DNA of 64,000 bases from Candidatus Moraniibacteriota bacterium. Its GTDB lineage: Bacteria; Patescibacteriota; Minisyncoccia; Moranbacterales; UBA1568. The position numbers and the translations under genes were made by a program. The stretch spans positions 451,212 through 515,211 of the forward strand of contig CP064975.1 of assembly GCA_016699425.1 (NCBI GenBank), written 5' to 3'. Under the pieces are notes generated by a model. The model was not told where the DNA came from and did not search any database. It saw nothing but the letters and a program-made list of their open reading frames with translations. Of this stretch, positions 5,088 to 64,000 are shown one piece after another. Position 1 is the first letter of the stretch. Each line of letters opens with the position of its first letter.

Positions 5088-7069
5088 CCGAGGAGCGAGA
5101 GGGGATTATGAGTGATACGGATATTCGGACCCAGGGCCGTCAAACAAAGCCGCAGCTTTTCAGGGAGCGCGTGCCCGACAGGATACCGGATAAGTACATG
5201 GTAGCGGTTTTTCCGGTTAAAAGGCAAATATTTCGGTAAAATATCGATCTCTGGGAGCACGAGCCGATGCAGGAGCGCCTCAGCCTGTTCGGCCGCAACC
5301 AGCGAGGTGGAACCTTTCTGGGGATAGCATTCCAGTTGGATGAGATGATAATAGGGCGGGTAGCGAAGCGAGCGGCGTTCTTCGAGCAGACCTTCTGCAG
5401 TTGTCTCAAGTGGTTGCTGTACCCAGGTCGTCCAAAAAGCGGATTCTGGCTCAAAGGTCTGGACGGAAAGTGTTCCGTTGGTCCGGAGCTTTGCTCCGAA
5501 GCGCCGGAGCTCGCGCCAGAGTCGCTCCTCGGTCTGATAGTCGGGATAAAACAGTCCCTGATCCGGTTCGATCAGCGCGATGAGACCAAGCGGAGGCAGG
5601 GGGAGACTATAGGCTGTTTCATAGGTGGCGATAATGATGGGTGGTTGGCTGGGTTCAGTGAGAGCAGCGATGATTTTCTGGAACCCTGACTTGAGTTGCG
5701 TGGTATCTCGGTCGATGACGATTATCGCGTTGTCCAGCCCCTCGCGTTGCAGAGCGCGTTCGATCGCTTGGGTGCCAGCACCAAAACTTTTGAAATGCAT
5801 GTGGCCACAGCTGGCGCAGGCAGGGAAGAGCGCACTCTGGTAGCCACAGGTGAGGCAGCGGAAACGACCGTCCTTCATCTCGCTCAGGATCGTCTGGCAT
5901 TTCGGGCAGCGTTGCGGCGTATGGCATTTGGCGCACAGCGAGAAGCGCGACACCCCACGTTGCTTCACGAGAATCAGTATGGCGGCAGGCTGGGCATGGG
6001 CCCGTCGGATGGCCGCGATCAGGTCCGCCGATAGGACCGGGGACGTGCGGTGACGAGCATAGGACTTGCGGAGATCGATGGTCGTGAGCGCGTGTTTCTG
6101 GGAAAACACGAACGGCTTACCGGTGCGCTTGAGCGGGAGGTCTTCGGCAAAATACCTGATACCGGGAGCCACGGAAAGTTTAATACATGGAATAGCCTGT
6201 CGCTGGGCGATCCATTCTGCTATCTCGACCGCATCGTAGCGCGGCGCCATCTCCCACTGCGTATAGGACAGTTGCTTCTCGCTATCGATGATGACGATAT
6301 TTCCGAGCGAGACATACGGAGCGAAGACAGCTTGTCGGGTGCCGACGACAATATCGAGCGTTTGAGACCGGATGGCCTGGAATATCTCGTACTGTTCTTT
6401 CGGGGTACGACGGCTTGAGAGGCAGCAGACGCGGGCCTGAGGCAAGGCAGTCTGGAGCTTCTTCGTGTACAGTTCGGCAGAGAGGACTTCCGGGACAAGG
6501 AGGCACAGCAGTTTCTGCTTTTTCACGGCCTGACCCCCGAGCGCGATGAGGCGATCCAAGAGGCGCGAATCACTTGGCACAGCTTCCATGAATGACAAGG
6601 GGTGAGTCCGTTTCTTTCGACGAATAGCTTTCCGGAGTGGTTGGGTCGTCTGAGACAGAACATCTACCGCTAGCGATTCCGTGGTCGATTGCGCGGTTCG
6701 TGGTTTCCGCTGGAGCGGGAAGAAAAGCTTGAGGACGATACCGAGCGGTGCGTAGAGACGTTCGCTCAATTCCCAGGCGAGGGCGATCTGATCCGCAGTC
6801 AGCCAGCTAGGGAGGAGCGTCACCCCGACATACTTCATCCACTCGGGTACGGGTCCAGGTAGGCGGGCCGAACCGAGCGTGACACCGATGAGCGTGCGTC
6901 GGCCGAATGAGATCGAGACGAGCGAGCCCGGGAGGATCGGCGTCGGAGAAGCGTAGCTAAAACGTGGATCACGCCGGCCATAGAGCGGAGTGAGCGGGAC
7001 GACTTCGATGCGGTAGACGATCGGGAGTTTCGGCATAGCGGAAGTGCTTTCATTGTAACAGCCTCGCAA
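5084..7069 (-). CDS. priA: primosomal protein N' (replication restart helicase PriA)
   Basis: 661 aa. Helicase motifs and a Cys-rich zinc-binding insert (CAKCHTPQRCPKCQ...CLTCGY...CASCG). Confidence 0.85.
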   Translation of the reverse strand: MRGCYNESTSAMPKLPIVYRIEVVPLTPLYGRRDPRFSYASPTPILPGSLVSISFGRRTLIGVTLGSARLPGPVPEWMKYVGVTLLPSWLTADQIALAWELSERLYAPLGIVLKLFFPLQRKPRTAQSTTESLAVDVLSQTTQPLRKAIRRKKRTHPLSFMEAVPSDSRLLDRLIALGGQAVKKQKLLCLLVPEVLSAELYTKKLQTALPQARVCCLSSRRTPKEQYEIFQAIRSQTLDIVVGTRQAVFAPYVSLGNIVIIDSEKQLSYTQWEMAPRYDAVEIAEWIAQRQAIPCIKLSVAPGIRYFAEDLPLKRTGKPFVFSQKHALTTIDLRKSYARHRTSPVLSADLIAAIRRAHAQPAAILILVKQRGVSRFSLCAKCHTPQRCPKCQTILSEMKDGRFRCLTCGYQSALFPACASCGHMHFKSFGAGTQAIERALQREGLDNAIIVIDRDTTQLKSGFQKIIAALTEPSQPPIIIATYETAYSLPLPPLGLIALIEPDQGLFYPDYQTEERLWRELRRFGAKLRTNGTLSVQTFEPESAFWTTWVQQPLETTAEGLLEERRSLRYPPYYHLIQLECYPQKGSTSLVAAEQAEALLHRLVLPEIDILPKYLPFNRKNRYHVLIRYPVGHALPEKLRLCLTALGPNIRITHNPLSLLG

Positions 7070-17342: not shown

Positions 17343-18305
17343 CTAGATATCATTCAGGGTATGCCGGATAGTCAGCTTTCCTGTAGCGGGGTCCTTATGG
17401 AGGATGCCAATCACGTTTGACAGTTTCTTTCTTCGAAGGTTCAGTTCATCGAATTCATCTTCCGTGAGGTCGCCCTCTGGATTCCATTGTGAGAGTGGCT
17501 CGGAGAGTGACCCCGATTTGTTTAATCGTATGAGTTCAGGGTAAATAGTCTTCTCGAGGAACGGCTTGGCCAGCGATCTCATCCGCATTGCCTCGTGGAT
17601 GTCCTCCACCTCTTTATAGATGAAAGTCGCAACATCCACGGTTCCAAAGATGGCCTCTGCCTGATCAAATGCCGCGTAAAGCTGTCGCAGTTCGGGGGTC
17701 CTAATACGTTCGATCAAGCCCTCCCCCTCTGGGAATTCCGCCAACTCACCACCAGTAGACAAAGTGGTACGTTCCTTGGCTTCTTCTGCTGTGTGCCCGG
17801 CTGACTCGCTATCGGCGGGCACAAAGGTCAGTCTCTTGGCTCCTTCTGGAGCAACTTCTACAGCGCTGCCCTCGATGATCACTGGCGCTGTTCGATGAGC
17901 GGTAGATGATAGTGTCTCTTGCACCTCCTCATCGGTCCACTGATCGGTCCATTTGCCAGTAGCTTCATCGTACGTAGAAAAAGTAGCACCGCCAGTACAC
18001 CGATCTTCATTGGGATCATCCAGGAATGCGCCCGCATAGTATGCGACTTCGATATTCGTCGACAGGGATCGATCGCCTACCCGTCGGTATGTATAGAGCG
18101 CGTCGTTTCCATCCAGACCGGTTACGGCCACTTCATACAGTAACACTCCACCTTGTTCGTCTTTCTGAACCCGCACCTCCCGGAGGCTTTCTTGTTTGGT
18201 CAATTTCTCAAGTCGGACTCTCAGCTGCTCCTGGATTTCTTGAAGTGTAAGAAACCGTGGGCCTTTTTCTGGGGTCGGTGCTTGGGATGGAATGTCGTAA
18301 TTCAT
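17343..18305 (-). CDS. hypothetical acidic protein
   Basis: 320-aa ORF, Glu/Asp-rich, with no recognisable motif. Confidence 0.4.
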   Translation of the reverse strand: MNYDIPSQAPTPEKGPRFLTLQEIQEQLRVRLEKLTKQESLREVRVQKDEQGGVLLYEVAVTGLDGNDALYTYRRVGDRSLSTNIEVAYYAGAFLDDPNEDRCTGGATFSTYDEATGKWTDQWTDEEVQETLSSTAHRTAPVIIEGSAVEVAPEGAKRLTFVPADSESAGHTAEEAKERTTLSTGGELAEFPEGEGLIERIRTPELRQLYAAFDQAEAIFGTVDVATFIYKEVEDIHEAMRMRSLAKPFLEKTIYPELIRLNKSGSLSEPLSQWNPEGDLTEDEFDELNLRRKKLSNVIGILHKDPATGKLTIRHTLNDI

Positions 18306-18330
18306 AATGTTTGAAATACATTTGCTGCAA

Positions 18331-18356
18331 CTCTGGGACGAAGTTGGAACTTTTAT
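18331..18356. repeat. gene-terminal 24-26-bp motif, copy 1 (CTCTGGGACGAAGTTGGAACTTTTAT)
   Basis: One of four near-identical copies. This copy overlaps the TAA stop of the minus-strand PPase-like gene. Confidence 0.8.
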
Positions 18357-18715
18357 CTCACGACTTCACTATCATATAGATGCTCCTGAAAAGCAACTTG
18401 ATTCATGATTTCTTCATCAGAATAGGCTATTCCTTCTGGAACCACCACAAGCTTATCGTCATCATCATTTCTTCTATGAATTATAGCAATGCAAATTCCC
18501 TCCACTTTTGTGAGTGGTTCATTAGCGCCTAAGAAGTAGGCGTCCAGGTCATCTCCATCAGGAGCTAAAACATGGGGTACATACCCATAATTTACAGGGT
18601 AGGAATCAATTTTATGAGGCTCGTATGAGGAGCCGATTGGTTGGTCAAATTCAAGCTGAACTTTTTTTCCAAGAAAAGTGCGAGCAATTTCTAGTGATTT
18701 AGAGACTTCTTCCAT
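18353..18715 (-). CDS. inorganic pyrophosphatase family I-like protein, N-terminally short (possible remnant)
   Basis: YPVNYGYVPHVLAPDGDDLDAYFLG matches the PPase core YPxNYGYIxxTLxxDGDPxDVLV. Only about 40 aa precede it. Low-GC segment. Confidence 0.45.
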   Translation of the reverse strand: MEEVSKSLEIARTFLGKKVQLEFDQPIGSSYEPHKIDSYPVNYGYVPHVLAPDGDDLDAYFLGANEPLTKVEGICIAIIHRRNDDDDKLVVVPEGIAYSDEEIMNQVAFQEHLYDSEVVR

Positions 18716-18729
18716 TTATTAAATTTATC

Positions 18730-18745
18730 AGCTGGGGAGGAAGGG
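18730..18745. repeat. 16-bp direct repeat GCTGGGGAGGAAGGGA, identical to the tRNA-Gln 3' end (putative attL-type island junction)
   Basis: Exact 16/16 match to 23237-23252, which lies inside tRNA-Gln. Confidence 0.7.
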
Positions 18746-18939
18746 AATCTTACTCGCTTCGCTCTTTGAGAACCCCTCGGTTCTCAACACTCGCAGACTC
18801 GCTGCTCTCCGCCACGGGAAAACTCCCGTTTTCCCGACCCCTGCCTACCGGCAGGCAGGCCTTTCCCTGTTCGATCCCTTACCTTTCCATTATAAACAAA
18901 AACACCCACAAGGGGTATTTCCGTTTACAAAAGCTGAGG

Positions 18940-18965
18940 CTCTGGGACGAAGTTGGAAATTTTAT
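18940..18965. repeat. gene-terminal motif, copy 2 (CTCTGGGACGAAGTTGGAAATTTTAT)
   Basis: Overlaps the stop of the methyltransferase gene. Confidence 0.8.
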
Positions 18966-19711
18966 TTCGAATTTTGACGCTTAATAAATGAAAGCATATG
19001 ACATATTGGTTTTCCGCTTTTAGATGCTGATTTATTCATAATAGGTTTTTCTACGATTAGTTCAAAACCGGCTACGTTTGCTGATTCTCGAACTGATTCA
19101 ACTGGTCTCAGAATATCAAAAATAGTACTGGTAACACCGCCACCGAGGTTCCGTTCTATCTTTACTTCTATGGCTCCATCAGCTAATTGACGGACGATTT
19201 CAGCCATAACAATATGTTTTCCTTGACCGGTCTCAGAAGAGAGTTCATCGTCTTTATCTCCCATAACAAGAATAAGTTTTCCGTTATCCGCAAGAAGTTG
19301 ACTAATTTCTTGAAAAGCAACTTGCAGGTCTTCGATGTGTTCAATGACCATCACCGCAAAAGCCGTGTCGAACTTTTCTTTCGTTGTTTCCGAAAACTTT
19401 TTGAGCGTAGATAGATGTGAAGTTGCCCATGGATATTTTTCTGTACTTGTTTTTATATTTGCTTCTGATGGATCGATACCTTGAATATCGCTAGCCCCTT
19501 TCTCTTTGAGCCAGTTAAAAAGGTGACCTGTTCCTGATCCTATATCTAGTATTTTTTTATCTTTTATCGCATCAATTTCGACAAACGAATCCAAAGACTC
19601 TCGCAAGTATTTGCGAGAAGGTGAATCTTCCGCTCCACGCAAGTGCCACTGCGTCTCAGGAAGATCATATTGTTTCGGATCTGTTGCTTTTGGAAATTCT
19701 CCTATATTCAT
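18962..19711 (-). CDS. class I SAM-dependent methyltransferase
   Basis: Motif I ILDIGSGTGHL plus downstream acidic and aromatic motifs. Low GC. Confidence 0.75.
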   Translation of the reverse strand: MNIGEFPKATDPKQYDLPETQWHLRGAEDSPSRKYLRESLDSFVEIDAIKDKKILDIGSGTGHLFNWLKEKGASDIQGIDPSEANIKTSTEKYPWATSHLSTLKKFSETTKEKFDTAFAVMVIEHIEDLQVAFQEISQLLADNGKLILVMGDKDDELSSETGQGKHIVMAEIVRQLADGAIEVKIERNLGGGVTSTIFDILRPVESVRESANVAGFELIVEKPIMNKSASKSGKPICHMLSFIKRQNSK

Positions 19712-19728
19712 AATTTTATTTGTTGTCC

Positions 19729-19754
19729 CTATGGGACGAAGTTGGAACTTATTT
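19729..19754. repeat. gene-terminal motif, copy 3 (CTATGGGACGAAGTTGGAACTTATTT)
   Basis: Overlaps the stop of the 196-aa gene. Confidence 0.8.
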
Positions 19755-20339
19755 GATTTTCTCTACCTGACTCATAAGTACTCGATACATCAGGGATATA
19801 ATAAACAAAAAACCCTCTTTTTCCGGCATGAACTGATTAAGTCTAATTACAGTATCATCCTTATATTCTGCTGGGAAGTTTATACTCAAATACAGCATCG
19901 TCTTACTTTTTTCCTTCCACATCCGATATTTAATTTCCTTTTCACCCGCAAATCTGGATAAAAAATTATCGATAGATTTCCCAGGTTTTGACCAGTTTAT
20001 CATTTCTTTAGTAAATGCTATTTCATCCCAACTTTTATAAAATGGGAAATGTACAAGGATATTTCTTACAAAAAGTATATATTCTTTTGAAAGCTCTGCT
20101 TCTAGCGGTGGCCTGATTATTTTTAGATTATCCAGAAACCACCCCACTGGTTCGTACTCAAGAATTTCTGAATAGATAAGAATAGCATCTCGCATCCTGC
20201 TTAATCTGTAGTATGGATCTTTGCTCCAAAATGAATCTTTGCTGATTTCCTCGAAAATATCTAAGAAAGCATCATAAGACGACTGTAGAAAGAGCTCCTC
20301 TTTTTTACTAGGTCTTTGATTCATATTGATCCTATTCAT
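19749..20339 (-). CDS. hypothetical protein (island)
   Basis: 196 aa, low GC. Overlaps the upstream gene by 8 nt, implying an operon. Confidence 0.45.
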   Translation of the reverse strand: MNRINMNQRPSKKEELFLQSSYDAFLDIFEEISKDSFWSKDPYYRLSRMRDAILIYSEILEYEPVGWFLDNLKIIRPPLEAELSKEYILFVRNILVHFPFYKSWDEIAFTKEMINWSKPGKSIDNFLSRFAGEKEIKYRMWKEKSKTMLYLSINFPAEYKDDTVIRLNQFMPEKEGFLFIISLMYRVLMSQVEKIK

Positions 20340-21618
20340 ACATCTCTAAATATGGCTTCACCCAGTCTTTCCCGTACACTTCTTCAACAAGTTTTAAATG
20401 TTGCGGTGTCATTTTAGCCTCTATCGAATCAAGGTAACCAAAAATGTCTTCTTTATCGGCAAGTGAAAGAATTTTTGTGTCATACTTAGCTATTTTTCTC
20501 TGAACATCACCAAAGCTAAGGAGACCAGCCATTTCCCTGTCCACAAGCATCGCATCCACATAAGGTAATAGTGTAGAAATCATTTCCACATCACTAGCCA
20601 TACCCCTGTTTGGCGGTAACTTTCGTCCTCCATGCGCAGCCTGATGGGCAATTGCTGCCCACAAAGATGCAGCAATTTCATTAAATGGAATATCTAACAT
20701 TTCTTCTGAGGAAAGAAAGTTTACTACTGCCATAAATTTTTCGTGTCTATCTTTTCCCGGAGCAAATGTTATCAAACTATGGACCAAAACCTGTTCATCC
20801 CAGAACTCAAAAAAAGTTGATGGATCAAATGCTGATGTGCCATTTTCTATGGCTTGTCCGTAGTTTACTAAAGCCTGAGCATACCTCTGTGACATTGCTT
20901 TTCCCCATGCCAGTCCCTCTTCCTTGAACCAATCAGGGAAAGCCATACCCTTTTCTTTTTGCCACCTCTCGAAAGTTGCTTTTAGGGAATCAGCAATCCT
21001 TTCTCTTGCGTTTCTCTCGGCCTCCACATCTTTCGGATCTACTTTAGAGTCAACTGTCACATAGATTCTGCCTCCCCAGCTCCCATGGCTGTTCTCTAAA
21101 ACATCATCTTTTGTTATTTCAGTATCTTTCTCGCCCCCTAATTTTCGAAACTTCGATGCAACTTGAAACCTTCTAATTGTAGGTGCATCTAAAAATGTTG
21201 TCCCACCAGAAAAGTGATCATACATTTTTTTCAAGGGTGCATATTTGCCTAATTTTGATTCAGTTCTGTGAAAAGTAGAATCAGGAATTTCAATTAATTG
21301 TAGTCTATGCAGTCTCTCAAGTTTTTCAAATAGCTTTAACCAAAACTTATCTACCTTTTCTGTTTTCCCAAGCTTCGCATTAAGCGCCAGCATCATATTG
21401 CTTATTGCAAATTGATCGAGATAGATGATGTGTTTTTCAAGTACAGGTAAATCAAACCTTTGGGAATACCAACACTTAGTGCATCGACGGGTATAGTTAT
21501 CATTGCCACCCGTCATAATTAAAACCCCAAAGTTTTTCGTTGAACACTTCGGACAAGTAATATAGGGCTCAGATATGAAAATTCGTGGATCAATGCTTAT
21601 AGCCGCTTCTTCTGCCAT
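20332..21618 (-). CDS. hypothetical protein with N-terminal zinc-ribbon (island)
   Basis: 428 aa. CPKCS...CTKCWY is a Cys4 ribbon. No other motif recognised. Low GC. Confidence 0.5.
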   Translation of the reverse strand: MAEEAAISIDPRIFISEPYITCPKCSTKNFGVLIMTGGNDNYTRRCTKCWYSQRFDLPVLEKHIIYLDQFAISNMMLALNAKLGKTEKVDKFWLKLFEKLERLHRLQLIEIPDSTFHRTESKLGKYAPLKKMYDHFSGGTTFLDAPTIRRFQVASKFRKLGGEKDTEITKDDVLENSHGSWGGRIYVTVDSKVDPKDVEAERNARERIADSLKATFERWQKEKGMAFPDWFKEEGLAWGKAMSQRYAQALVNYGQAIENGTSAFDPSTFFEFWDEQVLVHSLITFAPGKDRHEKFMAVVNFLSSEEMLDIPFNEIAASLWAAIAHQAAHGGRKLPPNRGMASDVEMISTLLPYVDAMLVDREMAGLLSFGDVQRKIAKYDTKILSLADKEDIFGYLDSIEAKMTPQHLKLVEEVYGKDWVKPYLEMYE

Positions 21619-22261
21619 AGCTCTAAATTTAAACTGTTGAAACTTATGTTAGACCTAAAAATGATAATAAACAAATGTCTCGCTTGTTGACATGGGACTT
21701 AAAGTGATGTAGGTTCTACTTGGAAACTTAAAAACCGAAATCCCGCAAATTATATTATTTTTTGCTGGCCACAAAGGGCGGATCAACTATACTAATAAGT
21801 CCCAAAGGAACAACCTATTCTAGGACCCGGGCAGCCCGATCCATTTCAACTCTACTTAAAGGCTCATATTACATATTCCATAGGGAACCTCATGCTGATT
21901 GAGCGCTCTGTGTGATTTTTTAAATCTATTTGATACTTAAGAAACCATCTTCAATTAGGGGTTGGTTTTTTCGTTTCCCAGAATTTTATTCTCTGGGGAA
22001 TGAAGCAAAGATTTATCAAAGAATTACGAGATCGGATAAAAGCGTATTCACAAACACGCTGTGCTTTGGCTATTTCCGATGATGAAGTAGAGCCAAAAAA
22101 GGATTTGTCAGTGCTATTGGTGAACGGAAAACAATTGTTCTGAAAAGGTTACTTTGGAACCTTGAAATCAAAGAGAAAGTTGTGGATACCGTCAGCTACA
22201 AAAAGCCTTACGGCATAACAAAAAAGCACCCAAAACGGGTGATTTTTCGGAAATGCTGAAC

Positions 22262-22287
22262 CTATTGGACGAAGTTGGAACTTATTT
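22262..22287. repeat. gene-terminal motif, copy 4 (CTATTGGACGAAGTTGGAACTTATTT)
   Basis: Sits 7 nt before the stop of the SET-domain gene. Confidence 0.8.
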
Positions 22288-22293
22288 ACTCGG

Positions 22294-23220
22294 CTAATCA
22301 AGCAAACTTTTAAGTTTATCGATAAAACCATTCTTTTTCATTTCTTCGAATAAAATCCAGTCAGCCGTATAGAGGAGATACTTTAATTTGTACTCTTTCG
22401 GGAGTTTCCGCCAGGGGAGAATATCGCCAAAACAATTTTTAGATCCACACAAACATTTGCCACCAGGTACCTGCCAATCGGAATTACAGAAGAGGCTATA
22501 GGAGAGAGTGAGTTGTTCGCCGGGCTCGATGTCTCTCATCGTGCAGACGGAAAACAAATCTTTTACGTAGCAGTTCGGTTCGCACGAATGATTTATTTTT
22601 ACTGCAATAGTATTGAACGCATTTCTATAAAAATACTTACTAAATGGGACGGCGTGATCCTTGGCAGTTTTGTGTGTCTTGGCGATGTCAGATTCTTTCT
22701 CCGCAAAAATGACCTCCCCGTCAATATAGGCGATACTGGTTTCCTTGGGAATAAATTCTTTTGCAAAAACACCCGAACCAAGTAAATCATCTACCTTTTT
22801 TATTTCCACCGCCTTACTATCCTGAAATGGGGATGATTGTGGTAGCTCATGCCAAGTAAATTCACTACATTCAAACTTTTTTGAAACGAAATCAATTATT
22901 TTGTTGGTATCAAAATCAGAACAAGTATAGATGTCTACCGTAAAGAAATTTGTATCATTCCAGACATAGGTACTTACTTCATTTTCGTTCCAAACGATGA
23001 ATCCATCATAGGAAGAATTCTCTTCTACTTTCTTGTTGAAAGCATAATCAAAAACAAAAGGACCTCGTAGTCCTTTGATGATATTATCAGGGTCTTTAAT
23101 CTGCTCGGTGAAATCTAAAAGAAAATTATAAAGAAAATCTAAGCTCGTAATTTTGGCTCCATACTTTCCTTCGATGATGAGCCTCTTTCTAAAAATTTCT
23201 GGAGCTATATTGTGATACAT
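22294..23220 (-). CDS. SET-domain protein (putative lysine methyltransferase)
   Basis: Start at the internal Met (MYHNIAPE). The listed ORF start at 23364 reads through the tRNA and is rejected. SET motifs INHSCEPNCYV and GEQLTLSY. Post-SET Cys cluster CLCGSKNC. Confidence 0.65.
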   Translation of the reverse strand: MYHNIAPEIFRKRLIIEGKYGAKITSLDFLYNFLLDFTEQIKDPDNIIKGLRGPFVFDYAFNKKVEENSSYDGFIVWNENEVSTYVWNDTNFFTVDIYTCSDFDTNKIIDFVSKKFECSEFTWHELPQSSPFQDSKAVEIKKVDDLLGSGVFAKEFIPKETSIAYIDGEVIFAEKESDIAKTHKTAKDHAVPFSKYFYRNAFNTIAVKINHSCEPNCYVKDLFSVCTMRDIEPGEQLTLSYSLFCNSDWQVPGGKCLCGSKNCFGDILPWRKLPKEYKLKYLLYTADWILFEEMKKNGFIDKLKSLLD

Positions 23221-23237
23221 AGAGGTAAAATGATTTG

Positions 23238-23309
23238 CTGGGGAGGAAGGGATCGAACCTTCGCATGGTGGGACCAGAACCCACTGCCTTACCGCTTGGC
23301 TACTCCCCA
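23238..23309 (-). tRNA. tRNA-Gln (anticodon CTG)
   Basis: The reverse complement folds as a cloverleaf. Acceptor stem TGGGGAG/CTCCCCA. D arm GCCAAGCGGTAAGGC, close to E. coli tRNA-Gln. Anticodon loop TT-CTG-GT. T arm GAAGGTTCGATCCCTTC. Confidence 0.8.
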
Positions 23310-23320
23310 ATGTTAGGTGC

Positions 23321-23563
23321 TTAGTTGTTCTCTTGAAACTGTCTCTGTATCGCTCGTCGTCCACTTCGCGACTTCAAGAATAGTTCTCTTTTTCTGGCTT
23401 CAATGAGATTATCATACTCTTCGCTATACGCAAGGATGAAGGGACGGCGATTTTTTGTAGAAATGTTTTTGCCAGCATTATGCTCGTCTAATCGGCGCTT
23501 TAGGTCGGTTGTGGATCCAACGTATGTACGATGATCTTTCTGACTGAGCAATATTATAGACAT
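23321..23563 (-). CDS. GIY-YIG nuclease superfamily protein (small, UPF0213-like)
   Basis: 80 aa. GIY-YIG core ...RTYVGSTTDLKRRLDEHN... Confidence 0.75.
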   Translation of the reverse strand: MSIILLSQKDHRTYVGSTTDLKRRLDEHNAGKNISTKNRRPFILAYSEEYDNLIEARKRELFLKSRSGRRAIQRQFQENN

Positions 23564-23617
23564 GTCCTTTCATAGGGCCCCTGCCTTATCCGTCTTCATT
23601 GCATTCAGCCGAGATAA

Positions 23618-23668
23618 ACCGCTTGGCTTGCCTCGGCTCACCCTAGGGTGAGACGGGCTACTCCCCAA
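23618..23668 (-). pseudogene. partial duplicate of the tRNA-Gln 5' region, interrupted by a 29-nt palindromic insert
   Basis: ACCGCTTGGCT, then a 29-nt insert (TGCCTCGGCTCACCCTAGGGTGAGACGGG), then CTACTCCCCAA. The two flanks match tRNA positions 23291-23310. Confidence 0.45.
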
Positions 23669-23833
23669 TAGCTTCGAATCAAGAATAAGGAATCAAAAAT
23701 CATGAGCTCGGCATCATGATTCTACAGCCATGAGACCCCCTTTCCTCATTCGAACTTCTGTTCAAAAAGACTCCCCTATCCTAGCGGAAAATGATATCCG
23801 AATCAAGTCGGCAGACCGCAAAAACGATAGGCT

Positions 23834-24748
23834 CTACGTCTTCAGGTAACGGTGAATCGCGATGAAGCTCGAAATGACCCCGAGGAAAACACCGAGGCAG
23901 ATGGTTGCGACCGAGAGGGTTGGGAGATAAGCGAGGAAGACCTGGAAAATATTGCCTTGAGGAAAGGCACCCTGGGTGAAACCGGCCAAGCCATACGAGG
24001 CCGAAGCCACGAGGGCTACCGACACGACTCCCGCGAACAGTCCATAGAGGATACCCTCAAAGATGTACGGCATCCGCACATACAGGTTGGAGGCACCGAC
24101 GAGACGCATGATTTCGAACTCTTGGCGGTGAGAGTAAATCGTGATCCGGATCGTATTGAAGGTGATGAGAACCGCGATCAGTCCGAAGGCGCTCCCAAGC
24201 GCGATCCCAAACTTGCGAGCAGCTTGTCCGATAGCGTTCAAGCGCTCGAAAATCCTCCGGTTCTTTTCGAAATTAATCCGGTTAATATCCGCCTGATACG
24301 GAGAGGTTTCGAGAAAGGTCGCGATTTTCTCATAATCAGCTTGGTTTTTGGCTCGGATGACGAGTGATGCGAGCAGCGGGTTCTCCCCGATTTCGTCGAT
24401 CGCTTGGCGGATAACGGGGTCAGCGCCATTGTTGGCGAGGAAGTCTTCGAGCGCCCGTTCGCGAGAGACATACTCAATCGAGGCAATCTCACGCGCCCGT
24501 TCCAGATACTGCTTCATTTCGACCATGCGTTCTTCGGTGACATCCGGATTGAACGAGACAGTGATACTGATCCGATTCTCAAGATTGTTCACGATGAGCC
24601 GCGTACCGATCGTGATCAGACCAGCAAAACTAATGATGAAGAGTGAAAGCGAGAGAATCGTAATCGTCGCAAAAGACAGCCAACCATTGCGCCGGAAATT
24701 CGTCAGTCCCTCTCGAAAGGTGCGCCAGAGTTTCAGTGTCCGTTGCAT
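23834..24748 (-). CDS. ftsX: cell division permease FtsX
   Basis: Four-TM FtsX-like topology with a periplasmic loop. Immediately downstream of ftsE. Confidence 0.8.
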   Translation of the reverse strand: MQRTLKLWRTFREGLTNFRRNGWLSFATITILSLSLFIISFAGLITIGTRLIVNNLENRISITVSFNPDVTEERMVEMKQYLERAREIASIEYVSRERALEDFLANNGADPVIRQAIDEIGENPLLASLVIRAKNQADYEKIATFLETSPYQADINRINFEKNRRIFERLNAIGQAARKFGIALGSAFGLIAVLITFNTIRITIYSHRQEFEIMRLVGASNLYVRMPYIFEGILYGLFAGVVSVALVASASYGLAGFTQGAFPQGNIFQVFLAYLPTLSVATICLGVFLGVISSFIAIHRYLKT

Positions 24749-35998: not shown

Positions 35999-37036
35999 TT
36001 ATAGACTAAAGAATGACTCTACGCCATTGGTGCTAGCGCGCATAAAATCGGTGAATCCTTTTTTATATAGTTCTATTTTGATTCCCGGAAATTTTTCAGC
36101 AGTGAGATTAGCATTTGGAGATACAATCCCAAAAGGAATTTCGCTTTTCTGAAAATTTTTATTAATTAAATCAACCAGGTAATCATCTCCCGCCTTCCAT
36201 CCAATTATTAAAATTCCGTCAATTTTTTCAAAGGAATCGGTCAATAACTTTACATGTCGTTCTGGGCATACAAAATTTTTCTTATCAGTAATAGGAATTG
36301 CTAGTGAAGGCACGGAGTAACGATGTGTTGTTGTAGTCCCAATTTTAAGAATCTTACGATAATGTCCATCGATATATATCTCCTCATCTAATTCAGTGAT
36401 CTTTAAATCATTGTGAATCCGCTCTGCATGCCTATAAAGGTATTCGTCATTTTTTGGTGCGAGATGTGAATCACTTTCATCGACGATCTGGATCCAATTG
36501 TACGCTCCGTGAATCTTAATAACTTTCAAGTGTGCATCACTAATGTAATCATCAACCCTTTGAAAGCCATTGGAATTGTTATAAAAGCTGAGATTCTTCT
36601 CGAAAAGTAAGTCATAATTAAAATTTACTACAATGGCGTTGCCACCGCAGTAGTCACCCAATCGATCTATAAGTCCACGATAATTGTTGACAGGGCTAAA
36701 ATAGTTATTACTTATCTCCCTAAATAGATCCCTTAAGTACAGTCTTAGGGCAATAAGTTGCTGATATCTCTCCTTATTCCGTGGCGCATATTCGTTTTGA
36801 ATTTTAGTTAAAAATTTCTCAAAATCTCCAATTGCTTCGTCTGTCATGCTTGAAGCAATACCAGAAACTATATTATTTGTTGCGATAAACTGCTTAAATC
36901 TTTCATGAAAGAGATCCTTCGTAAGTGGTGGTTTCAATCTAAAATCAATGCCACCGGCTACACTCAAGGAATTAAACCTATCCTCAACATAGTCGAATGC
37001 GGCGCCTGCTCCCAAAATAATTAGTGGATATTTCAT
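35999..37036 (-). CDS. standalone SIR2-like (SIR2_2/DUF4917-type) protein; candidate NADase defence effector
   Basis: Motifs LIILGAGAAFD, VVNFNYDLLFE, IKIHGAYNW and ILIIGWKAGDD appear in the order and spacing of the SIR2_2 family. GC is clearly lower (~38%) than both flanks. Confidence 0.6.
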   Translation of the reverse strand: MKYPLIILGAGAAFDYVEDRFNSLSVAGGIDFRLKPPLTKDLFHERFKQFIATNNIVSGIASSMTDEAIGDFEKFLTKIQNEYAPRNKERYQQLIALRLYLRDLFREISNNYFSPVNNYRGLIDRLGDYCGGNAIVVNFNYDLLFEKNLSFYNNSNGFQRVDDYISDAHLKVIKIHGAYNWIQIVDESDSHLAPKNDEYLYRHAERIHNDLKITELDEEIYIDGHYRKILKIGTTTTHRYSVPSLAIPITDKKNFVCPERHVKLLTDSFEKIDGILIIGWKAGDDYLVDLINKNFQKSEIPFGIVSPNANLTAEKFPGIKIELYKKGFTDFMRASTNGVESFFSL

Positions 37037-41210: not shown

Positions 41211-41774
41211 TCACTGCTTCAAATAATTTCTGTCGTTCTTCACGCGCTTCTTGTAATTCTCGAAGTCTGCCGTGAGACGTTGGACATCACTCAGATATCC
41301 TTGTTCTATGAGACGAGTTTGTGCTTTTAGGAAGGCCTCACGCAGAACGGGATATATTTTTTCATCGCTCCAAATCTCTTCAGGTGTCTTCCAAATATAC
41401 TCATTATGTTCTTCGCTCAGTTCAATTTCTCCAGTCTTGTAAAGACCGAGATGTATCACGGAAATTCCCGGGCGAGATGCCCACTGGCTGCGAACCACAA
41501 AAACTGGGCCAAGAAGTTCGTACTGGATATCACCAGCCTCCTCTTCTACCTCTCGGAGTAAAGCTTCTTCAGGTGATTCTTCTCCTTCCATGTGACCACC
41601 GAGCAATACCCAAGGGTCATACTCTGGATGCTTTTTAAAGAAATCAGATTCCGGTTCTTTGACCAGAAGAAATTTCTTAGTTTGCGGATTCCATAGGATT
41701 AATTTCTGAGAAACCGTGAAGAGTCCCCAGGTGAGATCTTCAGTTTTTTTCACAATTTCATTGTGTTTAGACAT
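41211..41774 (-). CDS. NUDIX-domain protein ending in a truncated GrpE N-terminal segment (partial duplicate of the adjacent fusion gene)
   Basis: Nudix box LLGGHMEGEESPEEALLREVEEEAG. The C-terminus LTADFENYKKRVKNDRNYLKQ matches the GrpE start of the downstream gene. The DNA repeats 40630-40665. Confidence 0.55.
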   Translation of the reverse strand: MSKHNEIVKKTEDLTWGLFTVSQKLILWNPQTKKFLLVKEPESDFFKKHPEYDPWVLLGGHMEGEESPEEALLREVEEEAGDIQYELLGPVFVVRSQWASRPGISVIHLGLYKTGEIELSEEHNEYIWKTPEEIWSDEKIYPVLREAFLKAQTRLIEQGYLSDVQRLTADFENYKKRVKNDRNYLKQ

Positions 41775-63292: not shown

Positions 63293-64000
63293 TTACTCAT
63301 TGGCATCTATTGGTAAAGATGCAAACTCTGACGTTTGTTTTTGCCACAAGGAGTAGTAACGGCCTTTCAAAGCTACCAACTCATCATGACTACCCGACTC
63401 AATTACCTCACCTGCGTGCATGACAATTATTCGATGAAGTCCTGCAACAGTGCTCAATCGGTGCGCTACAACTATTGCAGTTTGATTCCCAATTATTTCG
63501 GGAAGAGCGCGCTGTATGATCTGCTCGCTTTCACTATCAAGTGCACTGGTAGCTTCGTCGAAAATCATGATGGGCGCTTTCTTGAGTATGGCGCGAGCAA
63601 TTGCGACGCGTTGCTTCTGACCACCACTCAATTTAATGCCTCTTTCGCCGACGATGGTGTCGTAGCCGTCCGGCAATTTTTCTATAAACTCATGGGCGTG
63701 AGCCGCTTTGGCCGCTCTGATAATTTCCGCGTCATCTTCTTTATTGTTGTAGTAAGCGATATTTTCTTTAATACTGCGATGAAAAAGAAGAGGTTCTTGA
63801 GGTACATAGGCAATATTCTTCCGCAGTTCGCTTTGTTTTACTTCTTGAATATTAATGCCGTCTATTTTGATTGAACCACCGTCAATTTCATCAAATCGAA
63901 GTAGTAAATTTGCCAGCGTACTTTTACCGGCCCCACTCAATCCAACGATACCTATTTGTTCGCCACCTTTTATCTTGATCGTGAGGTTCGTAAAAACCGG
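63293..64000 (-). CDS. ABC transporter ATP-binding protein (C-terminal ATPase part of an exporter), continues beyond the window end
   Basis: Walker A (GLSGAGKST), signature LSGGQKQR, Walker B IMIFDEATS and H-loop. The listed start at 63940 is a TTG inside the gene; the reading frame continues to the edge. Confidence 0.7.
   Translation of the reverse strand, partial: PVFTNLTIKIKGGEQIGIVGLSGAGKSTLANLLLRFDEIDGGSIKIDGINIQEVKQSELRKNIAYVPQEPLLFHRSIKENIAYYNNKEDDAEIIRAAKAAHAHEFIEKLPDGYDTIVGERGIKLSGGQKQRVAIARAILKKAPIMIFDEATSALDSESEQIIQRALPEIIGNQTAIVVAHRLSTVAGLHRIIVMHAGEVIESGSHDELVALKGRYYSLWQKQTSEFASLPIDANE

Follow-up and report, generated by a model that had tools for sequence, protein, structure and literature searches.

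A stack of small gene cassettes behind tRNA-Gln in a Moranbacteria genome, probably built up by serial insertion at the tRNA 3' end

We analyzed 64,000 nt of a Candidatus Moraniibacteriota genome (assembly GCA_016699425.1, contig CP064975.1, positions 451,212 to 515,211), hereafter the window, and focused on a segment of low GC content that adjoins the 3' end of its tRNA-Gln(CTG) gene. The GC content is 0.385 in positions 18351-23235 of the window and 0.535 in the remainder. GC at third codon positions is 0.28-0.40 for the five genes of the island, as compared with 0.614 ± 0.073 for 57 other open reading frames (ORFs), and lowish GC (0.43-0.48) persists past the tRNA up to about 23800. These values confirmed the sharp drop in GC that had been described in a first-pass annotation of the same DNA, and the tRNA-Gln(CTG) that it had placed on the minus strand at the right edge was recovered as an intact gene by ARAGORN and Rfam (23237-23309; 59.8 bits to the tRNA family). 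It had also noted that a 16-mer at the tRNA 3' end recurs within the segment. The recurrence is exact but the coordinates had been one base off, with GCTGGGGAGGAAGGGA present at both 18731-18746 and 23237-23252, where 0.04 matches with up to two mismatches would be expected from the shuffled window. The contents that it had listed, methyltransferases and genes of unknown function, were borne out by Pfam scans. Likewise, scans against Pfam, PADLOC, PHROGs, and NCBIfam found no recombinase domain in any ORF of the island, in agreement with the earlier statement that no integrase, recombinase, or transposase is encoded.

The segment also holds a family of four 43-nt direct repeats, which the first-pass annotation had overlooked. 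The repeat core, TGGGACGAAGTTGGAAC, lies at 18334-18350, 18943-18959, 19732-19748, and 22265-22281. This family is confined to the segment within the 64-kb window, and 0.11 copies would be expected by chance. On the coding strand the core reads GTTCCAACTTCGTCCCA. Each repeat forms a junction of approximately 35 nt with the core GTTCCAAC[A/T]TCGTCCCA, and one junction stands after each gene unit. Every copy directly follows the stop codon of a minus-strand unit, and after it comes either the next ATG, about 20-37 nt later, or an intrinsic terminator. The junctions thereby divide the segment into compact cassettes, all of which are encoded on the minus strand.

Cassette 1 (22256-23236) is next to the tRNA and contains a gene for a SET-domain fusion protein (22294-23220), which starts 17 nt past the tRNA with no terminator between them. 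It closes with junction copy 1, AAATAA-GTTCCAACTTCGTCCAA-TAGGTTCAGC (22255-22287, 17-mer at 22265-22281; nhmmer E = 6e-10). Cassette 2 opens with an intrinsic terminator, the hairpin CACCCGTTTTGGGTG followed by a T run (22227-22241), which would have ended the tRNA transcript while this cassette adjoined the tRNA. Junction copy 1 and the terminator also occur together in another locus, with 88.7% identity to L006 13073-13143. About 600 nt without a long ORF follow (21619-22226), with promoter-like hexamers 45-75 nt upstream of a gene for a 428-aa protein, and then a gene for a 196-aa protein whose stop codon abuts junction copy 2, AAATAA-GTTCCAACTTCGTCCCA-TAGGGACAAC (19722-19754, 17-mer at 19732-19748). 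A 47-aa ORF on the plus strand (22000-22143) diverges from the 428-aa gene and matches no family; it may be a small regulator, an antitoxin, or nothing. Cassette 3 (18934-19721) carries a class I S-adenosylmethionine (SAM) methyltransferase gene and ends in junction copy 3, AAATAAAA-TTTCCAACTTCGTCCCA-GAGCCTCAGC (18933-18965, 17-mer at 18943-18959).

Beyond cassette 3 lies what would be an older insert (18731-18925), in which a terminator-like hairpin (~18896-18916) precedes a GC-rich structured element with the 16-mer at its end. The putatively oldest cassette contains a short gene resembling inorganic pyrophosphatase (18353-18715), and junction copy 4, GATAAAA-GTTCCAACTTCGTCCCA-GAGTTGCAGCAAAT (18324-18356), marks the distal end of the variable block. 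The right part of this copy, CAGCAAAT, repeats the tRNA end together with the present flank of the tRNA. A gene for a 320-aa protein of normal GC content (17343-18305, minus strand) starts 28 nt after junction copy 4. It is present in the close relative L045, not in L004, and is either an old cassette or the flank of the clade.

We compared the segment with 51 loci retrieved via FtsX, most of which are titled Moranbacteria, and found the order PrfB-FtsE-FtsX-(GIY-YIG)-tRNA-Gln kept in nearly all of them. Many loci with FtsX 70-85% identical, among them L002-L013, bear the title 'uncultured Bdellovibrionales', and L051 bears that of 'Micavibrio sp.', taxonomic labels that look wrong. The closest relative is L045, with an FtsE that is 99% identical in amino acid sequence. 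Its identity with the window is 97% as far as the last base of the tRNA (23236) and 96% where homology resumes at 18350, on the first base of the 17-mer, and between these two stretches lie 799 bp of unrelated DNA encoding a 202-aa membrane protein. These edges of homology define the variable block as 18351-23235. The existence of a close relative without the segment upholds the earlier claim of horizontally acquired DNA at the tRNA-Gln 3' end. However, it places the pyrophosphatase-like gene, which is absent from L045 and had been considered 'just outside' the repeat, within the variable block.

Individual units are shared between distant genomes. In L016, a Moranbacterium with an FtsX that is only 59% identical in amino acid sequence, the methyltransferase unit is the second unit behind its own tRNA-Gln and matches that of the window at 98.4% nucleotide identity over 816 bp, from junction to junction. 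Other relatives carry different genes at this position, including HAD hydrolases, NUDIX proteins, a restriction-modification pair, and hydrolases. This cargo is likewise of low GC content and common orientation, with a junction copy among or after the genes. The terminator and structured element that follow junction copy 3 in the window directly follow tRNA-Gln in L031, L035, L036, L039, and L040, which is the arrangement expected if new units enter at the tRNA and push older DNA outwards. One pair of loci displays an unoccupied and an occupied site. L168 reads tRNA-Ser…CCCTCTCCGC|AGATTTTAAATAGCCC… and L139 reads …GTTCCAACATCGTCCCA-CCCTCTCCGC-AGATTTTAAATAGCCC…, such that the same 918 bp (99.6% identical) lie behind an intact tRNA-Ser in L168 and behind the 17-mer plus CCCTCTCCGC in L139.

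The junction is widespread in public sequences. A metagenome scan for the 17-mer matched at least 120 contigs, and a profile search found 217 junction copies, which are distributed over 132 loci of Moranbacteria genomes and of metagenome contigs ranging in GC content from 0.26 to 0.65. Within each locus the copies lie on one strand. Two or more copies are present in 45 of the 132 loci, with a maximum of six and a median spacing of 699 bp, and the same-strand tRNA upstream of junctions is nearly always tRNA-Gln with anticodon CTG or TTG. Across the full range of GC content, 16 of 17 positions of the 17-mer are at least 92% conserved, although this figure is inflated because loci were retrieved by exact match to the 17-mer. 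Flanking positions that were not selected in this way are conserved too, and the consensus, aAAaAg-17mer-gAsnsCCAGCaa, extends beyond the 17-mer. The median length of the genes directly 5' of 94 junctions is 171 aa, and their products match 64 Pfam families with one to three members each. No recombinase is found among the 25 commonest of these families. No gene is constantly linked to the arrays, and their commonest neighbors are housekeeping genes such as dnaX.

The 10 bases 3' of the 17-mer track the 3' end of the upstream tRNA, be it Gln, Ser, Lys, Asp, or Asn. They match at 10 of 10 bases for tRNA-Ser (CCCTCTCCGC, L168), at 8 of 10 for tRNA-Lys (GGGCGGAC, L148), at 8 of 10 in each of two copies for tRNA-Asp (CCTCGC, L054), and at 6 of 10 for tRNA-Asn (CGGAGC, L130), where the tRNA's own flank is matched as well. 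With tRNA-Gln the junction continues …CAGC. In L163, L051, and the window, the copy farthest from the tRNA contains in addition a repeat of the flank that the tRNA has today. The geometry is fixed, and in 47 of 74 copies the end of the tRNA coincides with position 26 of the motif. On average 5.24 of the 10 bases matched, as compared with 4.52 ± 0.13 (maximum 4.93) in 200 shuffles of the tRNA assignment. Each junction is a conserved half-site borne by the inserted element, joined to the displaced last bases of the target tRNA. A half-site fused to a displaced tRNA end is the signature of site-specific insertion at a tRNA 3' end.

Other explanations for the motif itself were rejected. The 17-mer is not each genome's own tRNA-Gln 3' end, because it is constant while the tRNA sequences differ. 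Sites of the dif/Xer kind, uptake sequences, and RNA-processing or terminator signals were excluded because the motif is confined to this locus and covaries with the tRNA end. A search of Rfam at E ≤ 1 over 17500-24500 returned only the tRNA, and neither the junction nor the structured element is a known RNA family. Our literature search for the motif, for integrons in the candidate phyla radiation (CPR), and for tRNA-Gln islands or a cassette hot spot in CPR bacteria found no description of them, and a gene-capture site of this integron-like kind appears to be undescribed.

Given what is directly observed, namely the junction anatomy, covariation with tRNA ends, fixed geometry, occupied and unoccupied sites, sharing of cassettes, and variability between relatives, we consider that 18351-23235 is probably a stack of four to five small units that were serially and site-specifically inserted at the end of tRNA-Gln(CTG) and moved in trans by a large serine recombinase (LSR). 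We infer the trans-acting LSR, as well as circular forms of the cassettes, the sequence in which the units arrived, and what the cargo genes do. Serial insertion at the tRNA end implies that the newest unit is the one next to the tRNA. The insertion point is the last bases of tRNA-Gln (…CCCCAGC, 23237-23243), which would constitute an attB- or attI-like site, and the junctions locate the crossover no more precisely than within or past the final 4-10 nt of the tRNA.

The candidate recombinase comes from four loci in which an LSR of about 500 aa (Resolvase, Recombinase, and Zn_ribbon_recom domains) is encoded antisense to a tRNA, with its 3' end overlapping the tRNA 3' end (L052 5456-7003, L140 5653-7161, L148 6461-7942, and L026 11047-12591). 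The LSR adjoins tRNA-Gln in L052, L140, and the Moranbacterium L026, and tRNA-Lys in L148. A junction copy lies 5.2-6.8 kb downstream of the LSR in L052, L140, and L148, and in L148 the right part of this junction is the tRNA-Lys end. In the same three loci the LSR neighbors a rolling-circle replication protein (Rep) of the G2P/Phage_CRI type (REP_ORF2-G2P), and these elements look like autonomous relatives of the cassettes. All four LSR ORFs read through the antisense of the 3' part of the tRNA, which encodes their last 20-30 codons, so the C-terminus of the protein would differ between the integrated and excised states.

Each unit ends in the element-borne half-site aAAaAg-GTTCCAAC[A/T]TCGTCCCA plus about 6 nt, after which come the final 4-10 nt of the tRNA (…CAGC), displaced from it, and the former tRNA flank. 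Under the proposed mechanism, the tRNA end would take an attI-like role and the conserved cassette site an attC-like role, with the LSR supplied in trans from autonomous relatives of 5-7 kb at the same site. If P' (behind the tRNA) resembles B' (the original flank), the tRNA site would stay attB-like and the junctions attP-like. The usual attB x attP reaction could then suffice both for inserting a circular cassette and for releasing the cassettes nearest the tRNA as a circle.

The position of a shared motif is consistent with this assignment of sites. Counted from the tRNA terminus, the T-loop-like GGTTCCAAC of the junction begins at 28 nt and the GGTTCGATC of the tRNA at 23 nt, a shift of 5 bp. 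For the integrase of the Listeria A118 family, the motif of the zinc ribbon domain is located at positions 16-24 of attP half-sites and 5 bp nearer the center in attB (PMC3783163). The present sites are similar in that the shared motif is 5 bp closer to the crossover in the attB-like tRNA than in the attP-like junction, and in that the motif lies about 17-25 bp from the presumed crossover. They are unlike A118-family sites in that the motif and its shift are seen in one half-site only. Mimicry of the T-loop would explain why the 17-mer remains constant across elements targeting different tRNAs while the inner 10 nt adapt.

Several observations weigh against an LSR-driven stack. There is no LSR within the whole 64-kb window, the link to LSRs rests on four loci, and recombinases are missing from the surroundings of most arrays. 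Neither circular cassettes nor empty-site reads were seen. Only one half-site is strongly conserved, the side after CAGC being merely A/T-rich (AAAT…) with no inverted copy, and this asymmetry differs from the quasi-palindromic attP of well-studied serine integrases. The 17-mer is identical in elements with LSRs that are only 47% identical, and this is more conservation than a site specific to one recombinase would be expected to show, unless the sequence is constrained because it mimics the universal T-loop. The structured element with its 16-mer does not fit the junction type of the cassettes. Finally, the exact 17-mer has 42 matches in IMG/VR (L179-L220), none of which has an adjacent tRNA, LSR, or other recombinase. 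These matches are mostly within one conserved block of high GC content (0.60-0.70; …GTCGAAGGTTCCAACATCGTCCCAGACA…), with a few contigs at GC 0.47. We judged them to be unrelated, and they look like a coincidence with probably coding sequence.

The scarcity of recombinases near most arrays would also be expected if the junctions were fossils and present turnover occurred by homologous recombination after DNA uptake, with the tRNA and the junction or flank as anchors and no dedicated recombinase. In keeping with this possibility, conserved sequence stands at both edges of the block replaced between L045 and the window, the tRNA on one side and the 17-mer on the other. However, an anchor of 17-35 bp is short for RecA-dependent exchange. 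Fossil junctions should decay, yet 16 of 17 positions remain at least 92% conserved (albeit inflated by exact-match retrieval) and the unselected flanks are conserved too. The pair L139/L168 furthermore shows a precise insertion at the tRNA end. We consider turnover without a dedicated recombinase to be unlikely.

The Phage_CRI / REP_ORF2-G2P protein beside the LSR in L052, L140, and L148 raises the alternative that a rolling-circle (HUH, G2P-like) Rep nicks, or starts replication at, the 17-mer. Replication that began at one copy and stopped at the next would free one cassette as a single-stranded circle, which a recombinase or host repair would then place at the tRNA. Conservation at all positions of the 17-mer but one is what a nick site would display, and units common to different genomes extend from junction to junction. 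Nevertheless, the Reps of the three elements are too divergent for a BLASTP match while their 17-mers are identical, and no Rep is encoded in the window. A nick site alone also leaves the fixed 10-nt spacer matching the tRNA and the T-loop-like motif shifted by 5 bp unexplained. This makes an origin of rolling-circle replication quite unlikely.

The first-pass annotation had read the segment as a single integrative island, inserted at the end of tRNA-Gln with the 16-bp repeat as its boundaries, and either decayed, with its integrase since lost, or moving by another mechanism. An exact repeat of the tRNA 3' end, low GC throughout, and the absence of an integrase all agree with such an island. 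As in a classical tRNA island, the insertion is at the 3' end of an intact tRNA, with variable DNA from 23236. However, no integrase is adjacent, and the distal boundary lacks a direct repeat of the tRNA 3' end, as the junction at 18350 carries only CAGCAAAT. The comparison with L045 ends the variable block at 18350 rather than at 18746, the junction copies split the block into units, and one of these, the methyltransferase unit, is by itself 98.4% identical in the distant L016. Moreover, the 16-mer ends a conserved element of ~160 nt that elsewhere stands directly behind tRNA-Gln with no island between. A single island is therefore very unlikely, and a decayed integrative element is less likely than small cassettes that lack an integrase and are moved by a recombinase in trans. 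A stack of such cassettes goes most of the way to explaining why the island lacks an integrase.

Least probable, to the point that we give it little credence, is a remnant of a classical integron (a cluster of attC sites lacking integron integrases, CALIN) with cassettes moved by an IntI-type tyrosine recombinase on folded attC: the co-oriented, compact, and diverse single-gene units, each with a repeated site, and their median of 699 bp and diversity of cargo do resemble integron cassettes, but the site is a sequence-conserved 17-mer rather than a structure-conserved imperfect palindrome of 57-141 nt, has no R''/R' boxes with a RYYYAAC…GTTRRRY pair and no consistent hairpin (judged by eye and from a position table), and joins the 3' ends of tRNAs with constant spacing, and no IntI was found in the window or next to the arrays at the loci examined.

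Taking the serial, LSR-mediated stack as the preferred account, we tentatively suggest a broader possibility, which is that Patescibacteria may possess an integron-like form of gene capture that operates without an integron integrase. The 3' end of tRNA-Gln, and less often of other tRNAs, would serve as the site, an attP-like cassette site of ~35 bp would mimic the T-loop with a shift of 5 bp, and an LSR acting in trans from Rep-carrying elements of 5-7 kb would move cassettes in and out by attB x attP reactions alone. The structured element could possibly be a further part of this hot spot, acting at the level of RNA.

The GC-rich structured element is approximately 140-190 nt long (window ~18747-18886) and its 3' end is the 16-mer (18731-18746). 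The arm on its 5' side, GGTAAGGGATCGAAC, corresponds to the T-arm of the tRNA in reverse complement, and the arm on its 3' side duplicates the tRNA 3' end. From locus to locus the two arms vary along with the sequence of the local tRNA-Gln, and the internal hairpin has four to five compensatory changes at six of eight pairs. Beyond the copy in the window (18731-18886, minus strand), we located copies in L031 (2645-2825 and 7287-7445), L036 (11443-11630), L039 (3810-3992), L040 (12326-12469), L086 (3970-4110), L035 (11196-11334), L015 (4030-4152), and L123 (1438-1483). The element is directly behind tRNA-Gln, usually after a terminator and with no island between, in L031, L035, L036, L039, L040, L015, and L123. 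The 16-mer marks a separate and older event, in which the duplication reached further into the tRNA than it does in the junctions. The element may be a non-coding RNA of a new family, or it may serve as the att region of some different type of mobile DNA.

On the other side of the tRNA is a gene for an 80-aa GIY-YIG protein (23321-23563, minus strand; Pfam GIY-YIG, 1.7e-14), which is found between FtsX and tRNA-Gln in at least nine Moranbacteria loci. In the direction of transcription it comes immediately after a 5' fragment of tRNA-Gln with two GC-rich hairpin inserts (23578-23669, minus strand), which stops at the anticodon stem and was recognized by a 14-mer repeat and alignment, and ahead of the intact tRNA-Gln. 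The same arrangement, with a fragment that ends at the anticodon stem or loop, occurs in L016 (11026-11353) and L045 (~6000-6300). This unit is outside the cassette stack yet part of the same tRNA hot spot, and looks like a homing-endonuclease unit that brought its own copy of the tRNA and displaced the resident one. A second tRNA-Gln copy of the type found in the window lies directly behind the functional one in L017 (12262-12415) and lacks the first 6 nt. It has two GC-rich hairpin inserts, in the D-loop and the anticodon loop, and its 3' flank, TGATGAATTTAAAA, resembles the bases after the 16-mer in the window.

With respect to the cargo, the product of cassette 1 (308 aa; 22294-23220) combines an N-terminal domain resembling AdoMet_dc (Pfam, 1.6e-08), overlooked in the first-pass annotation, with a SET domain (Pfam, 1.3e-13; PF00856 at 51.7 bits versus a cut-off of 22.4). 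A longer SET ORF that runs through the tRNA is an artefact, and the start is at 23220. The motifs reported earlier for this protein, NHSCEPN, GEQLTLSY, and CLCGSKNC, are all present in its translation. Its description as eukaryote-like did not hold as to origin, since the fusion of AdoMet_dc with SET forms ~60 clusters and the named ones all belong to Patescibacteria. The SET protein is thus no evidence of eukaryotic origin, and its sequence relationships indicate a CPR family rather than a eukaryotic import. In a Pacebacterium (L221/L222 5001-6290) a stand-alone AdoMet_dc gene and rplJ-rplL come, in this order, after the fusion gene, a context that hints at a ribosomal protein as the possible substrate.

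The two genes of cassette 2 encode a 428-aa protein (20332-21618, minus strand), which is 100% identical to IPJ68_02320, and a 196-aa protein (19749-20339, minus strand), which is 100% identical to IPJ68_02315 and is annotated by NCBI as a 191-aa product from a later start. The first-pass annotation assigned one of the two an N-terminal Cys4 zinc ribbon, and the four N-terminal cysteines of the 428-aa protein (C22, C25, C46, and C49) are indeed invariant or nearly so in 50 homologs. Behind the ribbon is a PIN-like alpha/beta/alpha nuclease fold split by a large helical insert of ~190 residues, with D68, E120, and D360 invariant and D343 and D355 nearly so as candidates for the four acidic residues of a PIN metal site. 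The smaller protein appears to be a HEPN-like helical bundle in which R92-x4-H97, an instance of the Rx4-6H motif, is invariant in 34 sequences. Neither protein matches a profile in Pfam, PADLOC, PHROGs, or NCBIfam, no PIN family is among the Pfam matches of 50 members of the 428-aa family, and a sequence search of the PDB gave that protein no match.

Homologs of the 428-aa protein number 175, are all labeled 'hypothetical', and occur in CPR, Bacillus, and Methylacidiphilales. Their neighborhoods are of the defense or mobile type, with an EcoRI-type methylase, GmrSD, and an overlapping PD-(D/E)XK gene, or with a resolvase and a Lit peptidase. In other genomes the 196-aa protein is encoded after a DUF5677 protein or within an element with LSR and TrwB. 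A 203-aa gene after the Bacillus homolog of the 428-aa protein proved unrelated to the 196-aa protein. The two genes had been proposed as a coupled module, possibly for defense. They do overlap by 8 nt if the first ATG is used, and a role of the defense or toxin type is plausible, but their differing partners in other genomes imply that they are not an obligate pair.

The larger protein thus looks like a PIN-like nuclease and the smaller one like a HEPN-like (Rx4H) protein, and a predicted toxin or abortive-infection role is plausible. They are similar to VapC (PIN)/HEPN toxin modules in their PIN-like fold with conserved acidic residues, putative helical bundle with an invariant Rx4H, tight linkage, and homologs in defense or mobile islands beside an EcoRI-type methylase, GmrSD, a Lit peptidase, DUF4238, and DUF5677. 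They are unlike such modules in matching no PIN, HEPN, or PADLOC family profile, in having varying partners, and in having no evident small gene resembling an antitoxin. Unlike VapC, the PIN-like fold of the larger protein is split by its insert and preceded by a zinc ribbon.

The methyltransferase of cassette 3 (249 aa; 18962-19711, minus strand; Pfam Methyltransf_23, 7.9e-18) has its ATG 20 nt after junction copy 2. The pyrophosphatase-like protein of the distal cassette comprises 120 aa (18353-18715, minus strand) and matches the Pfam Pyrophosphatase profile (9e-09) at positions 30-103 of 153. Further genes of low GC content are scattered outside the island on the minus strand. These encode a 345-aa protein (35999-37036; GC 0.36) with only weak matches to SIR2_2 and EF-hand, a NUDIX hydrolase (41211-41774; GC 0.43), and an ABC ATPase (63293-63940; GC 0.44). 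Neither a junction motif nor a tRNA adjoins them, and they are probably other acquired genes.

CPR bacteria, or Patescibacteria, have tiny genomes and few recognized mobile elements, and their exchange of accessory genes is poorly understood. The conserved 17-mer is a searchable mark for arrays of freshly exchanged single-gene cassettes behind tRNA-Gln. A cassette that is 98.4% identical between genomes with FtsX proteins only 59% identical implies that the 17-mer provides a handle on gene flow. It can be used to catalog traded genes and identifies a site where insertions are predictable. If a serine recombinase runs the system, it would be a second, independently evolved integron-like platform. 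Its junction would then be a natural serine-integrase attP that mimics the T-loop of a tRNA, which could help to retarget integrases.

The resemblance to integrons and CALINs is one of organization. Both have a fixed capture site, compact co-oriented cassettes with very diverse functions, many of them promoterless, and a recombination site belonging to each cassette. In both, the newest cassette is next to the capture site and arrays vary between close relatives. Unlike integrons, the arrays described here have no IntI and no attC structure, their site is conserved in sequence, their capture site is the 3' end of a tRNA, and the enzyme is probably a serine recombinase.

In terms of mechanism, the closest analogs would be the accretion of staphylococcal cassette chromosome (SCC) and pseudo-SCC elements at rlmH by Ccr, and that of integrative and conjugative elements (ICEs) and cis-mobilizable elements (CIMEs) at tRNA genes. 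SCC and SCCmec of staphylococci use the large serine recombinases Ccr to insert at the 3' end of rlmH/orfX. The cassettes behind tRNA-Gln share with them a target at the 3' end of a conserved housekeeping gene, tandem accretion of units separated by integration-site repeats, members without a recombinase beside members with one, and, by inference here, the large serine family. They differ in targeting tRNAs (mostly Gln, but also Ser, Lys, Asp, and Asn), in consisting of single-gene units of ~0.3-2.5 kb instead of elements of 20-60 kb, in having a 17-mer that resembles the T-loop as the conserved site, and in their Patescibacteria hosts. In streptococci, arrays at tRNA-Lys or fda form by accretion of integrative and cis-mobilizable elements. 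There too, units without an integrase are flanked by att sites, stacked at the target gene, and thought to be mobilized by the integrase of a related autonomous element. Those arrays rely on tyrosine integrases, long segments of identity, and large elements, whereas the arrays described here are composed of single-gene cassettes with a short half-site common to the whole family.

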